Positions 681 through 56,866 of a stretch of DNA of 64,000 nt are shown here, one piece after another. A model generated the notes under the pieces. The model had not been told where the DNA came from and did not search any database. It was given only the letters and a program-made list of their open reading frames with translations. The DNA comes from a virus. A program made the translations under genes and the position numbers. The stretch lies in IMG/VR virus record IMGVR_UViG_3300042507_005574. The stretch is one strand, 5' to 3'. Position 1 is the stretch's first letter, and each line of letters starts with the position of its first letter.

Positions 681-2096
681 ATGTGGCAACACTGGCAAAG
701 AATAATTTCTGAAGAAGCAAAGAAGTATGGTTATGGAGAGAATGAATTAGAACAAACTGAAACTACTGAAATCTTTGAGGACTACAAGGAAACACTCAAA
801 GGTGTTCGTAAAGTAAAAGTGCTTAAGCCAATCCAATTCGCAAAGTTGGATGTAGGTACAACCTATGTGTTGATGTATGACACCTCCTACATGGGTGAGC
901 CGATGTATAAACTTGGTGCAGATGGAAAGAAGACTTCAGGTCGCATCTCTGGAAAGAAGATTGCAAAGGCAATTGAAGGCGGTCTTATACAAGCACTCAA
1001 GGAAGAAACTGAGGAAACTCAGTTCGTGGAGGACGGCGAGATCGAAGAGGCAAAGGACATTGGGCTTCGTACCGATCTCCATCACCCCAAGGGCAAGGCT
1101 GTAGTTACTAAGGACGGTAAGGTTGTGAAGATCTACCGTACCGAACGGGCCGCTCGTAAACATGCAATGACAGGTAATCCCGTGAAGGAAGATGTTGAAG
1201 TTGCTGAACAGTTCAAGGCAGGGGACAAGGTAAAGGTTCCTCACAAGGGCAAGATGGTCAGCGGCAAGATCGTCCGCTTCGATGATGGCGGCACAAGCAA
1301 GGCACAGCAGCATGGCGGTGGCTATGTGGTTGATGTCGGTGAGCCTGCAAGTATTCTTGTTCCGAAGCAGAAGGTACAAAAAGAAGAGACCGAAGTAGCG
1401 GAAGCAAATCTCACAGAGGGTCCGTATACTGTAATTCCTTATCCCATGATCACCAAGGGACTGCGAGATGCAGCATCGCCGTTCTCTATTCAGTTTGTGG
1501 ATTACAAGGGAAAGGTACTATACCAATATCCAAAACAAGTAAATTCCATTCAAGCCTTACCCGCACACATGGATGGGATCTTCAAGGAAATGCGAGATAG
1601 TGGTTGGCTCTTGCGCCACGGGGGAGCATCGCTGAAGTTATGGCACAGAGTAAACATCCTCGACAAAGACGGTAAGGTTGTCAACAGCATCGCTGCCTTC
1701 GATGTACCGAAGAAGCGTTCTGAAGAATTTGAACTCAGTGAGAATGATTGGGTTAACATTCATGAATCTGCTGCACTTTTAGCGAAGACCGCAGCAAAAG
1801 AAATCACTGCCAAAGCAAGAGAATTGGGAGTTAAAATAATAGTCCAATCAAACACTTCAGTTTCTTTCTCCAAGAATTTCACTAGAGGTAGCAAAGAGGA
1901 GTTCTTCAAAGCATACTCGGATTGCGACAAAGTTCGTAGAATGGTTCGCTTTAAGAGTCGTGTAAATGAGTGGGGAGCATCAACAGGTGGTATTGGACTT
2001 GGAGCACAAGATGATATCGCCAAGGGAGTTGTGACCATTCATAAGAGTGGTGATGGAGCAGCATATCTGCTTAAGGAACTTGATAAATCCAATTAA
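681..2096 (+). CDS. multi-module putative internal head protein
   Basis: Short basic modules (one SH3/KOW-like: FKAGDKVKV...GYVVDV) separated by acidic linkers ending in (L/I/V)xE (IEE-A, VKE-D, LTE-G, LSE-N, IHE-S). Confidence 0.6.
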   Translation: MWQHWQRIISEEAKKYGYGENELEQTETTEIFEDYKETLKGVRKVKVLKPIQFAKLDVGTTYVLMYDTSYMGEPMYKLGADGKKTSGRISGKKIAKAIEGGLIQALKEETEETQFVEDGEIEEAKDIGLRTDLHHPKGKAVVTKDGKVVKIYRTERAARKHAMTGNPVKEDVEVAEQFKAGDKVKVPHKGKMVSGKIVRFDDGGTSKAQQHGGGYVVDVGEPASILVPKQKVQKEETEVAEANLTEGPYTVIPYPMITKGLRDAASPFSIQFVDYKGKVLYQYPKQVNSIQALPAHMDGIFKEMRDSGWLLRHGGASLKLWHRVNILDKDGKVVNSIAAFDVPKKRSEEFELSENDWVNIHESAALLAKTAAKEITAKARELGVKIIVQSNTSVSFSKNFTRGSKEEFFKAYSDCDKVRRMVRFKSRVNEWGASTGGIGLGAQDDIAKGVVTIHKSGDGAAYLLKELDKSN

Positions 2097-2097
2097 T

Positions 2098-2439
2098 ATG
2101 ATGCAGTCTTTCATTAATTTTCTTCCGTCTTACTTTAATAGTTTGAATGAAAGGTTTGACCCTTTCAAAATTTTCTCTTATAAGAAAAGTGCGAATGAGA
2201 AAGATCCTAAGTATGGTAAAAGAGCCATAGTGATTTATAAGACTGAAGATGGTACGAGAGTGGTTTCTTTGTTTCCTCCGATACAACTCAGAACCACTGA
2301 CAATAAGTATGAATTCAACAGACACTTAAATGCATACATCGATTCCCTGAAAAAAGATGGGAATGAATTTGTAAGTGTTCACCAAGAAGGTGATCCGGTT
2401 TTTACGAAGTATGCTAGAGGCATCCCAAAGGAGTCTTGA
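2098..2439 (+). CDS. hypothetical protein with CTS-like N-terminus
   Basis: ATG 2098/2101 just after the upstream stop; MQSFINFL...SLNE. Confidence 0.6.
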   Translation: MMQSFINFLPSYFNSLNERFDPFKIFSYKKSANEKDPKYGKRAIVIYKTEDGTRVVSLFPPIQLRTTDNKYEFNRHLNAYIDSLKKDGNEFVSVHQEGDPVFTKYARGIPKES

Positions 2440-2457
2440 GAAAATTTTAAGAATGTG

Positions 2458-2486
2458 TTGACACGCCCCGCAAGGGGCGTTATCAT
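2458..2486 (+). promoter_or_regulatory. sigma70-type early promoter with hairpin-forming spacer
   Basis: TTGACA-17-TATCAT; spacer overlaps ACGCCCC-GCAA-GGGGCGT. Confidence 0.7.
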
Positions 2487-53854: not shown

Positions 53855-54127
53855 ATGGCGAATAATGAAGAACTAAAAGAAGAAATGACCAACGGCGATG
53901 AAGATGAAGAGATTAGTTTTGATGACATTGATCCTATTCCGACAGAAGATTCGGATATTGAAGAGGGTGAATATTCGACTACAGATATTCCTCCAGCGGA
54001 CCTCGTTGACTTGATTGCAAACCAAAAAGCAAGTGAAGCGAAATCGGAGATTTTCCGTTCTCTTTACAATAAAGTCGGTGAAAGAATCGAAGGACTTAAG
54101 TCTGAGATTCGTAAAAGTTCTGAGTGA
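53855..54127 (+). CDS. small acidic late protein, gp67 prohead-core-like
   Basis: TAAATA and GGAG upstream; acidic N-terminus, helical DLVDLI...LYNKVGERIE. Confidence 0.5.
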   Translation: MANNEELKEEMTNGDEDEEISFDDIDPIPTEDSDIEEGEYSTTDIPPADLVDLIANQKASEAKSEIFRSLYNKVGERIEGLKSEIRKSSE

Positions 54128-54142
54128 AGATAGGATTTTATT

Positions 54143-54847
54143 ATGATTCCAAATATGATTCCTGTTCTAGGGGCAGGATTTGTTCAATATGTTGATCACA
54201 TGGGAAGCGACTTGACGGTCGTAAATGCTGCCCGAGTCTCTTTCAACAAAGAAAGTGAATGGGAACATCCAGATAGCCATGTCCCTGCCAATATTCTTTC
54301 GGAAAAAGATAAGAAGTTAATCTATTATCTTGCAAAGCATAATCACTGGACTCCATTCGCACATCCACAGATTACTTTGCGAATCAAGGCTCCAATTTCA
54401 ATTCGCACACAACTATTTAAACACAAGCAGGGATTCGTAGAAAACGAAGTATCTCGCCGCTATGTTTCGGATTCACCGGAATTTTATTTGCCCAAATGGA
54501 GATCTAAGCCATCTAATGGTGCAAAACAAGGTAGTGAGGATTTCATCGATGATCAGCAGCGTATTGAACACTTTAACGATCTTTATAGCCAAGTTATTTC
54601 GAAGGCTCATGGATACTATGAATTCTTGATTGAACAAGGTGTGGCCCCTGAACAAGCGAGGTTTATTCTTCCTCAGGGAGCATATACGGAATGGTGGTGG
54701 ACTGGAAGTCTTGCAGCATATGCTAGAGTATATTCTTTAAGATCGGATCCCCATGCTCAATGGGAAGTTAGATCTTATGCCCAAGCCATTTCCAATATTA
54801 TTAGTTCGATATATCCTGAGTCTTGGAACGCTCTAACTTGTCAATAA
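54143..54847 (+). CDS. thyX: flavin-dependent thymidylate synthase
   Basis: VVNAARVSF, HWTPF, NEVSRRY, PEQARFILP, HAQWE. Confidence 0.95.
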   Translation: MIPNMIPVLGAGFVQYVDHMGSDLTVVNAARVSFNKESEWEHPDSHVPANILSEKDKKLIYYLAKHNHWTPFAHPQITLRIKAPISIRTQLFKHKQGFVENEVSRRYVSDSPEFYLPKWRSKPSNGAKQGSEDFIDDQQRIEHFNDLYSQVISKAHGYYEFLIEQGVAPEQARFILPQGAYTEWWWTGSLAAYARVYSLRSDPHAQWEVRSYAQAISNIISSIYPESWNALTCQ

Positions 54848-54865
54848 ATACAGGTGGTGCGGTGA

Positions 54866-56866
54866 ATGCCAAGAAACTTCAACGAATACATCCGTGAAGA
54901 TGGCGATGGTATAGTTTTTGCAAAACTATCCGGAATAGACTCTTTGAACATAGGTTCAAAGGTCATGCTTGTCAATGACGGATTGATGGGGTTTGAGGCA
55001 GGAAAATCCTTTAGAATAGCCTCTAAAATTGATTGTATTGATAGTCATATTCATCGATATAAAGGAATAGGAGAAGCCTACCTTGTAGATGAAGATGGTA
55101 ATTCACACACAATCAAAGCGGGATCAGAAATACTCAACAACTCTTTTATTGTTGTTGAAAAGGCAATCAAACAGACTATAGAAGAAGATGTAAAGTCGAT
55201 CACACTCTCAGAGGACGCAAAGCCTATCCCTGAACCGAATCCAGTCATAGTGGAGCGAGTGGTGACAAGGGTAGAGCGTGGTCCTGAGGGAGTTCCAGGA
55301 CTCCGTGGTTCCCGTGGCTCACAAGGCCCAAAGGGAGACAAGGGCGATAAAGGCGACAAGGGCGACAGAGGGGAAATTGGTCCCCGTGGTGCTCAAGGTC
55401 TCCGAGGAGAAAAGGGTGAGCGAGGAAAACAAGGCGAGAAGGGTGAAAAGGGAGATTCGGGACCGCAAGGATCCCAAGGCATCCAAGGAATTCAAGGAAT
55501 TCAGGGGGAAAAGGGAGAGAAGGGTGAGAGAGGAGAACCCGGTCCACAAGGTGCTATTGGCATTAAAGGCGAAGTCGGAGAAAAGGGCGAAAAAGGTGAA
55601 AGAGGCGAGAGAGGCGAGAGAGGCGAAAAGGGTGAAAAGGGCGAAAAGGGTGAGAAAGGTGAAAGAGGTGAGCAAGGAGAGCGTGGCCCTCAAGGCATTC
55701 AAGGAGTGGATGGACAAAGTGGGGCTATAGGTCCACAAGGTCCACAAGGTCCACAAGGTCCACAGGGTTTAAAGGGAGACAACGGAGAGCCAGGATTGCG
55801 AGGAGAGCCTGGTCCAAAGGGCGATAAGGGAGACAAGGGGGACAAAGGAGACAAGGGAGATACGCTGTTCTCCACAGTTCAATATCCCCTGATAGTTAAA
55901 AATCAGAGACTCTCAATTGATCTCAACAAATTAAGTAAGAATATCGCCACAGGATCACCAATTCTCTACGATGGTGGAGGTGGTGTTGGGGAAGCATTCA
56001 GATTTATTTCTGTATCTGGTCAGTCAGGATTAACTGCTGTACAGTATGATAAAGAAACCCTTACAATTATTGCAGGCACAGGAATATCGATAGAAACCGA
56101 TGGGGAAGCGAATTCACTCAAAATTATCAACACAGGACCGACAGGCGGACAGGGTATCCAAGGCATTCAAGGAATTCAAGGAAACACAGGACCAACCGGA
56201 CCACAAGGAATCCAAGGAAACACAGGACCAAAAGGCGATCCAGGTGATGGTGTAGCGGGAAATAATGATGTTGGTGTGATGTACTTGAAAAATAATACCA
56301 CACCAACAGACATCCCCACAATTAATGCTCGGGCAGTTGTTGCAGGTGGAATGACTACAGGAACACTATACAATTTTGAGAAAGATTCAGGAACAAATTC
56401 ACTAAAGTATTTGGGTTCGGGTGGTAGATTTCATGTACTTGCTACTTTTAACTTTTCGACAGAAGTAAGTAATAACACATGTGGATTCTATATCGGTCAT
56501 AACAAAAATATTGCTAGTGGCTTAAGTGCAAACGGTGATCGTATATCTGAATCTGAAGTATATGTTGACTGTCCCTCCTCATCGAAACCTGTTGGAGGAT
56601 CAATTCAAACTATTCTTGATTTGAATACAAATGACCGTTTATTTTTTATTGTGCAAAATAAAGATGCGGCAAAAGATATTACTGTTGAATTCATGAAATT
56701 CGTTGCAGTGACTTTGACATCTGAACGAGGGGCAACAGGAAACGCACCCACAATACCAATTGCAAGTGATTCAATTACGGGAGTTGCATCATTCAACTCA
56801 ACTAATTTTAGTGTTTCTGCGACTGGTAATGTGAGCATAACTACTGTATTGGGGGGAACATTCTAA
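54866..56866 (+). CDS. collagen-like fibre protein
   Basis: Long Gly-X-Y run at about 55279-55862 and a shorter run at about 56134-56246. Confidence 0.88.

Follow-up and report, generated by a model that had tools for sequence, protein, structure and literature searches.

A T4-type capsid-targeting sequence probably marks a cohort of packaged enzymes in a distant T4-like phage

Introduction

The capsid-targeting sequence (CTS) of phage T4, whose mechanism has been known since the 1990s, is a stretch of 10-19 residues that otherwise unrelated internal proteins (IPs) bear as a propeptide at the N-terminus; positions 4 and 7 are aromatic, position 8 is aliphatic and position 10 is Glu. In the T4 record, IPII and IPIII carry the tag in its 10-residue form and IPI has the same head with the cut site 19 residues in, so that the spacing varies even among the tags of T4 itself. 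T4 also packages Alt, an ADP-ribosyltransferase that is trimmed by gp21, injected, and active on host proteins before phage gene expression. In this study, we examine a CTS-like tag shared by unrelated proteins of a 64,000-nucleotide stretch of viral DNA (IMG/VR record IMGVR_UViG_3300042507_005574), the whole of which is called the window here. A sequence-only reading of the window had picked out eleven such N-termini and proposed that the phage packages and injects a set of enzymes.

It is textbook knowledge that T4 has a CTS, that the CTS can be transferred and that internal proteins vary among T-even phages (PMC3012670, PMC9026906), and the CTS has been proposed as an evolutionary route for loading diverse proteins (PMC9026906). 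Mutagenesis of T4 IPIII by Mullaney and Black assigned positions 4 and 7 to targeting and positions 8 and 10 to processing (PMC9026906, section 2.6); with Asp at position 10, targeting is kept and processing is blocked (PMC9026906). T4 packages 20-200 copies of foreign CTS fusions of up to β-galactosidase size (PMC9026906), and the size of the window cargo is thus no obstacle.

The window tags share with the T4 CTS its place, length and key residues, its occurrence on otherwise unrelated proteins and the presence of a gp21-family protease in the lineage. They differ in that about ten or more genes are tagged, as against three or four in T4; in that the cargo consists mostly of enzymes, 100-1237 residues long, whereas that of T4 is small basic proteins; and in that the genes lie across four late operons rather than at ip loci, in a phage very distant from T4. 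Many window tags have an insert of 1-7 residues between head and cut site, as does T4 IPI. The parallel with Alt would lie in the loading of an enzyme into the head with trimming and injection, but the short N-terminal propeptide of Alt is not an IP-type tag.

The prohead protease of phiKZ/SPN3US-like giant phages cleaves at [SAG]-x-E, a motif unlike that of the window tag. Head-internal proteins of those phages, enzymes included, are likewise cut after Glu by a gp21-related protease and ejected (PMC5694885, PMC7411985), but they carry long propeptides, and a short N-terminal tag that could be moved between proteins has not been defined for them. The polyvalent proteins of Iyer, Burroughs, Anand, de Souza and Aravind (2017, PMC5512222) resemble the product of window gene 41676 in stringing together effector-type enzyme domains and a peptidase, with packaging and processing predicted; they are tied to portal or MuF contexts, however, and not to a T4-type tag, and that paper makes no mention of cyanophages or of RimK-type cargo in T4-like phages. 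The closest parallels are the cyanophages S-CREM2 (PMC10665884) and S-SM1 (PMC3037559), of the same Kyanoviridae-like family-level lineage and with the same tag. Their cytidylyltransferase is orthologous to cargo of the window, and a degrading enzyme for S-adenosylmethionine (SAM) and a kinase are analogous, whereas the window phage adds RimK, NT5C, DUF6267 and a Cys-His protein. None of the papers searched connects the tag with phages of the cyanophage or Melnitz type or with the enzymes in their virions. The gain here is in breadth and cargo (a distant lineage, new enzymes), not in principle.

Results and Discussion

A common N-terminus heads unrelated proteins

Genes are named here by their first nucleotide. 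The relatives compared in full were the contigs G002 (97%), G003 and G005 (about 59%), G006 (119 kb; a 62% relative) and G007 (168 kb, 93% complete), and the further comparison phages were Melnitz, S-CREM2, S-SM1 and T4. All eleven N-termini quoted in the sequence-only reading were found in place. The genes considered are as follows, with q values from the matrix described below.

2101..2439, + strand: 112-residue protein, function not known; 17-residue tag (2101-2151) ending in LNE, just ahead of the conserved mature start; q=0.01
3347..3637, + strand: 96-residue protein, function not known; 10-residue tag of the strict pattern; q=0.007; first gene of a late operon
3634..4542, + strand: 302-residue two-domain protein; 10-residue tag
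4553..5554, + strand: likely zeta-toxin/AAA_33-like P-loop kinase, 333 residues; 14-residue tag with one extra residue after Met, ending in LEE
6185..6766, + strand: SAM lyase; 11-residue atypical tag (Cys at position 4) ending in LNE; q=0.013
10714..11397, + strand: PAP2-family phosphatase (PF01569); tag head with F4 and H/I7, Asp in place of Glu
11394..11927, + strand: NT5C/HAD 5'(3')-deoxyribonucleotidase; 10-residue tag of the strict pattern; PF06941 from residue 15
25536..26282, + strand: polysaccharide deacetylase (PF01522); F4 and F7 kept in the window copy, no Glu
40460..41674, + strand: DUF6267 (PF19782), likely RNA-ligase-like nucleotidyltransferase; 14-residue tag, domain from residue 19; first gene of a late operon
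41676..45389, + strand: 1237-residue multi-enzyme protein; 13-residue tag
45386..45646, + strand: 86-residue basic module; its own 13-residue tag; ATGA overlap with the preceding gene
51089..51565, + strand: 158-residue protein, function not known; 13-residue tag; q=0.013; in the late operon starting at 49953
54866..56866, + strand: collagen-repeat, fibre-like protein; N-terminus resembling the tag with one extra residue; matches to the Collagen Pfam family and to tail-fibre PHROGs

The sharing of a tag among these unrelated proteins is real, and pattern, matrix and shuffle tests all reject chance. Of the 72 window genes, 3 start with the strict 10-mer M-[KRQLI]-x-[FY]-x-x-[FYH]-[LIVF]-x-E, where its frequency inside proteins predicts 0.03; 7 start with a tighter variable-length form (0.13 expected) and 11 with a loose form (2.2 expected, p=1.4e-5). 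Because these patterns had been seen before they were tested, a two-part matrix (head positions 2-7, a gap of 0-10 residues, then P3-P1') was trained, with the propeptides of DUF6267 homologues in other phages as its sole training set. This matrix set 9-12 of the 72 genes apart from the remainder, with q≤0.013 for 40460, 3347, 3634, 11394, 41676, 2101 and 51089 and q of 0.02-0.1 for 54866, 4553, 10714 and 45386, after which the p-values jump. When a one-residue offset was allowed, 6182 (the SAM lyase gene), 54866 and 4553 were also retrieved, then 10714 and 45386. Run on T4 as a positive control, the same matrix placed gp61.1, IPI, IPII and IPIII as the top four of 275 open reading frames (ORFs).

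An over-flexible motif fitted by eye to AT-rich N-termini might produce such a cohort by chance, and it speaks for that view that the first pattern permits many alternatives and that two of its eleven members, 13662 and 54866, fail. As a control, residues were permuted within each N-terminal column, which preserves the composition bias near the start codon; none of 5000 shuffled sets held as many matrix hits as were observed, and composition bias is thereby ruled out as the cause of the tag count. For the core set, the chance explanation is refuted by the three kinds of test together with conservation in orthologues, and we leave it almost no room.

Nine of the eleven proposed members are firm: 2101, 3347, 3634, 4553, 11394, 40460, 41676, 45386 and 51089. 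The membership of 54866 is doubtful, a targeted-but-not-cut case being possible, and 13662 (read from 13668) is not a member, as it has no matrix score, its aromatic residue is out of register, and the only relatives found are 98-99% identical; the 'nuclease-like' cargo protein of the sequence-only reading falls with it. SAM lyase 6185 is probably a member that this reading missed, judging by its sequence. The phosphatase 10714 may be targeted and not cut, because its tag ends in Asp, as does T4 IPIII carrying Asp10. The deacetylase 25536 is a weak candidate of the same targeted-but-not-cut kind. As had also been claimed, the replication and sugar genes (14981-39807) lack the motif: none scores, except a HAD phosphatase that matches via its catalytic DxD.

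In G007, at least 11 ORFs exceed the 0.1% matrix threshold, and several of them lie outside the region homologous to the window; for this reason the cohort is probably larger in the full genome than in the window. Four further tagged ORFs of G007 at 156525-164705 (537, 205, 359 and 155 residues, function not known) have no counterpart in the window.

The tag matches the T4 determinants and is conserved as a unit

The tag stands at the extreme N-terminus, right after the initiator Met and outside the folded domain; the Pfam domains of 11394 and 40460 start past it, and in AlphaFold2 models of 40460 and 3634 it is a disordered or short-helix appendage with a predicted local distance difference test score (pLDDT) below 50. 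Throughout the core set and its orthologues, position 4 is F or Y and position 7 is Y, F or H. An aliphatic P3 and a Glu P1 stand at the boundary of the mature protein in 2101, 3347, 3634, 4553, 11394, 40460, 41676, 45386, 51089 and 6185. This aliphatic-x-Glu end is absent from 10714 (Asp), from 25536 (no Glu) and from the orthologues of 54866; in that family the head (F, Y/F, I) is conserved, and four orthologues have N, D, A or G in place of the final Glu.

The 36 distinct tags of the 3634 family carry 3.0-4.3 bits at positions 1, 2, 4, 7, 8 and 10 and 1.2-2.0 bits at positions 3, 5, 6 and 9, the value at position 10 being inflated because that position set the register. The conserved positions coincide with the mutational map of T4 IPIII. 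About 100 DUF6267 homologues begin with the tag just ahead of a conserved KN-HL-H-ED, and some tags of this family differ from that of T4 IPIII by 2-3 residues. In T4 itself, gp61.1 (NC_000866, 18966-19130; 54 residues, 'hypothetical') has a perfect IP-type tag and scores with IPI-III in the matrix.

Orthologues at 35-70% identity retain the tag although the flanking residues do not align, and those in Melnitz, G003, G005, G006 and G007 are tagged even where the BLAST alignment starts 13-33 residues in. The start of 2101 is an ATG inside a longer GTG-initiated ORF and is confirmed by three orthologues (50-56% identity) with tags of 10 or 13 residues, in which Glu directly precedes a conserved (R/T)FD(S/P)FK. 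The orthologues of 3347 in G003 and G007 keep a 10-residue tag, and those of 11394 in G003, G007 and Melnitz are tagged. Gene 4553, which starts with GTG behind a good AAGGAG, has orthologues in Melnitz and G007 that are tagged though their N-termini do not align, and the same holds for 51089 in G003, G005, G006 and Melnitz. The G007 orthologue of SAM lyase 6185 has a different, longer N-terminus, yet the same L-[ND]-E ahead of a conserved ASL. For 10714, G003 and G007 share the form M-x-x-F-x-x-[HI]-x-x-[VIM]-D, so that the tag ends in Asp in three phages, and the orthologues of 25536 in G007, G005 and G003 do carry a tag. Distant homologues of 3634 (P0181, P0183-P0189) have no T4-type tag; a conserved W-x-K-x-A-Q-x-W-like segment before their GDGDCM may be another leader, of a different phage group.

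A shared N-terminus could instead serve some other process: a modifying enzyme or a chaperone might recognise it, it might form a helix for membrane association or localisation, or it might be a feature of translation initiation on late mRNAs. The N-terminal codons are indeed AT-rich, with K or N frequent at position 2. Against such a role, the column shuffle keeps that composition and fails to reproduce the co-occurrence, Glu coincides exactly with the edge of the conserved domain in many families, and the motif equals the experimentally defined CTS of T4 and coincides with virion proteins. Moreover, no modifying enzyme was noticed adjoining tagged genes across the genomes read, though no systematic search was made. 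We regard this explanation as quite improbable.

Modules fuse and separate with tag or joint

Gene 41676 shows how the tag behaves when modules are rearranged. Its product contains, by Pfam, a cytidylyltransferase-like nucleotidyltransferase (NTase), a RimK ATP-grasp domain, a retropepsin-like 'Zn_protease', a helical region and small DUF modules, and its tag is retained in G002, G003, G005 and G007 (as a 10-mer in G007). The RimK domain (PF08443, residues 342-512) scores 105.6 bits against a cut-off of 21, and a stand-alone Melnitz homologue scores 115 bits. NTase and RimK are joined in one protein in the window; Melnitz has a separate, tagged gene for each. Sites of the form [LIVMF]xE occur in the linkers at residues 217, 692, 814, 977 and 985 and are conserved in five orthologues, and residues 215-226, at the NTase/RimK joint, resemble a former (fossil) tag. 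From these sequence features, 41676 is probably a polyprotein that is cut at its linker sites by the head protease.

The neighbouring 45386 module behaves in the converse way. It is 74% identical to residues 370-442 of the 650-residue Melnitz NTase protein, in which it follows an LDE at that very boundary, so that the module is free and tagged in the window and internal in Melnitz. Its orthologues in G006 and G007 are tagged, and it matches the C-terminus of phrog_3041. The ATGA overlap of 41676 and 45386 suggests translational coupling. The G003 homologue of 3634 has the tag directly on the C-domain, and of two NT5C paralogues in Melnitz, one has the tag extension and the other does not. Modules that are fused in one phage and separate in another thus have either a tag or an [LI]xE joint.

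Tagged proteins occur in cyanophage virions

For the T4-like cyanophage S-CREM2, a published virion proteome lists 52 proteins identified by mass spectrometry (PMC10665884). Among its 'non-structural' virion proteins, the tag heads a SAM hydrolase (ORF6), a kinase (ORF14), a cytidylyltransferase (ORF154) and the small proteins ORF13, ORF15 and ORF136. The matrix trained on DUF6267 is over-fitted to its own lineage, with a preference for Ser at position 3 and for certain P2 and P1' residues; it overlooks some of the tags of S-CREM2 and showed no significant association with virion detection in this phage (p=0.14). In its place, the T4 mutational map supplied the pattern for S-CREM2: an aromatic residue at position 4, an aromatic residue or His at position 7, an aliphatic residue at position 8 and Glu at position 10, counted from any start codon in the first 45 codons. 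Exactly four S-CREM2 ORFs fit it, all of them virion proteins (Fisher p=0.0029).

In S-SM1, Sullivan et al. detected the core cytidylyltransferase T4-GC190 in virions (PMC3037559). This protein, SSM1_190, has a perfect 10-residue tag and is an orthologue of the N-terminal domain of 41676. PMC3037559 (main text and supplementary files) says nothing of a common N-terminus or of a signal for targeting, and the same is true of the main text of PMC10665884. At 147295-151332 of S-SM1 (NC_015282), DUF6267 and the cytidylyltransferase are adjacent cyanomyovirus core genes, with SSM1_190 and SSM1_192 tagged.

These virion data bear on a further alternative, namely that the tag does direct proteins to the prohead but that these are core or assembly components, like T4 gp67 and gp68, or are degraded or expelled, rather than injected as effectors. 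T4 core proteins are likewise cut at [LI]xE and mostly exit the head (PMC9026906), and three of the tagged window proteins have no recognisable enzyme domain. For most of the cargo, however, a structural role is implausible, these being enzymes (nucleotidase, kinase, ATP-grasp, SAM lyase, ligase-like protein); tagged enzymes are found in mature S-CREM2 and S-SM1 virions, and T4 CTS cargo, foreign enzymes included, reaches cells (PMC9026906). We therefore consider it improbable, if slightly less so than a role in some other process.

A gp21-family (Peptidase_S77) prohead protease is present in Melnitz, G006, G007, S-CREM2 and T4. At 96786-99215 of G006, five small genes lie between the portal and the prohead protease, where T4 has gp67 and gp68, and by this position they may encode core proteins of the lineage. 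Candidate propeptide sites in the major capsid proteins of relatives (LPE/LNE near residue 24) were left out of the evidence.

Packaging and its proposed course

The tag exists, is non-random, conserved and modular, matches the T4 determinants and marks virion proteins in two related phages. On this basis we consider it likely that the shared N-terminus is a T4-type CTS and that at least nine tagged window proteins are packaged and delivered with the DNA. The capsid-targeting interpretation of the sequence-only reading is thus borne out by the retrieval of T4 IPs with the matrix, the match to the IPIII map, conservation and modularity, and the virion proteins of two cyanomyoviruses. By analogy with those phages the window phage probably packages its tagged proteins; tag cleavage, copy number, injection, action at the start of infection and the roles of the enzymes we infer from T4.

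In the proposed course of events, the tag would be a propeptide of 10 residues or, where an insert is present, of 11-17. Late transcription from gp55-type promoters, represented in the window by consensus boxes, would supply the tagged proteins during prohead assembly, and the tag head, with its aromatic residues at positions 4 and 7, would bind the assembling scaffold core of the prohead; analogy and cross-phage proteomics support these two steps. A gp21-family (S77) head protease would then cut after the Glu of the aliphatic-x-Glu end, and would probably cut polyprotein 41676 at its linker sites as well. The mature enzymes would remain in the head, leave it with the DNA and enter the host before phage gene expression.

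Several points weigh against this interpretation. The patterns were partly shaped after the data had been seen, a concern that the matrix and shuffle tests reduce and do not remove, and the boundary of the class is fuzzy, with atypical tags in 6185 (Cys4) and in 10714, 25536 and the orthologues of 54866 (Asp or no Glu). The virion evidence comes from S-CREM2 and S-SM1 and not from the window phage or its closest relatives; abundant late proteins can turn up in mass spectrometry even when virions are CsCl-purified; and the published virion tables contain no N-terminal peptides, proof of cleavage after Glu coming from T4. The S-SM1 homologue of DUF6267, as annotated, lacks the tag. Finally, the S77 protease is known from relatives only, there being no head genes within the window.

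If the interpretation is correct, a ten-residue tag predicts which proteins abundant uncultured aquatic T4-like phages carry into the cell, a set otherwise visible only with purified virions. It would account for the cytidylyltransferase, SAM hydrolase and kinase in cyanophage virion proteomes, for which no reason had been given, and it would point to counter-defence or takeover in the first minute of infection through SAM depletion, repair or modification of RNA and nucleotides, and glutamylation of host proteins. We hold more tentatively, as a possibility, that the IP-type tag is ancestral to the T4 superfamily, from Straboviridae to Kyanoviridae and Melnitz-like phages, and hence a sequence predictor of the injected proteome. 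The cargo would then form a pre-made kit acting before phage transcription, with a SAM lyase, a heal-and-seal RNA repair set (ligase-like protein, kinase, HAD phosphatase) and a protease-cut NTase-RimK polyprotein, which genes could join or leave by way of ten codons.

Identity of the cargo enzymes

The enzyme labels given in the sequence-only reading held to different degrees. Those of the NT5C nucleotidase, the RimK ATP-grasp protein and the nucleotidyltransferase are firm, those of the zeta-toxin-like kinase 4553 and the RNA-ligase-like DUF6267 protein 40460 are likely, and that of the Cys-His fold of 3634 is weak. For 11394, PF06941 scores 36.4 bits against a cut-off of 24.8, with DMDGV at residues 21-25. 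SAM lyase 6185 matches PF23780 at 40.3 bits (cut-off 28). Kinase 4553 matches PF06414 (Zeta_toxin) at 18.5 bits, under the cut-off of 22.3; a Walker A motif GxxGSGKS is present, the Atlas feature score is 0.97, and its ten best matches are all in viral zeta-toxin clusters.

In DUF6267, the motif I residues K63, D65 and G66 (KxDG) are invariant in 28 sequences. The AlphaFold2 model has a pLDDT of 88.5 with residues 1-20 disordered, and its best 17 matches in VIA are all RNA or DNA ligases (Z 8.4-5.6), among them Naegleria RNA ligase 5cot (Z 8.4; 183 residues aligned, rmsd 3.8), T4 Rnl2 (7.5), Trl1 (7.3) and T4 Rnl1 (6.8). On the evidence of the model, DUF6267 is likely an RNA-ligase-like enzyme with an inserted helical bundle, the similarity being one of fold and not proof of membership. 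The N-domain of 3634 has an invariant Cys18 and His64, with C18 at the start of a helix (18-30) and residues 1-16 disordered in its AlphaFold2 model. Its best fold matches, NTAQ1 (Z 5.4), SseI (4.8), LapG (4.7) and protein-glutaminase (4.5), are all below safe Z and weakly suggest a papain/transglutaminase-like Cys-His hydrolase; the matches as a whole, at Z 4-5.4, are to Cys-His(-Asp) amidases and proteases. Sequence searches of the PDB with DUF6267 (as a profile), 4553 and 3634 returned only noise, and Foldseek gave no match below E 0.1 for the DUF6267 and 3634 models. The Pfam and PHROG matches obtained for those window proteins that were searched include no ADP-ribosyltransferase domain. 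As a guess, the cargo might act in SAM depletion against restriction, in the repair or modification of RNA and nucleotides, and in the modification of host proteins.

Setting of the tagged genes

Every gene of the window is on the + strand. Beside the tagged genes, it encodes a T4-type clamp, clamp loader, DNA polymerase, UvsX and gp41-like helicase for replication, a block of sugar and glycosyltransferase genes, fibre-like late genes, 14 tRNAs and one tmRNA.

8063-8455, + strand: tmRNA, within a tRNA cluster at 7152-13645 (14 tRNA genes); tag peptide ending in RRLALAA

The DNA polymerase is 47% identical to those of cyanomyoviruses and less so to that of T4. A megablast search with 7 kb of the window against 50,697 phage records gave no match at the DNA level. 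The nearest cultured phage for several window genes is Methylophilales phage Melnitz, of the family Kyanoviridae, and the close and mid-distance relatives are IMG/VR contigs only.

Boxes of the form [ACT]TAAATA are concentrated between genes, 9 of the 21 being wholly in non-coding DNA, which makes up 7% of the sequence (p=8e-6). The tagged genes had been described as mostly downstream of TAAATA late promoters; boxes do stand ahead of the operons starting at 3347, 10339, 40460, 49953 and 54866, and none was seen for 2101.

3335..3341, + strand: late-promoter-like box CTAAATA, upstream of 3347; consensus match only
10327, 40428 (ATAAATA), 49926 and 54844: similar boxes ahead of operons holding tagged genes; consensus matches only

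The [AC]TAAATA boxes at 3335, 10327, 12422 and 13656 end only about 5 nt before an ATG, with no Shine-Dalgarno sequence, an arrangement that suggests near-leaderless late mRNAs.

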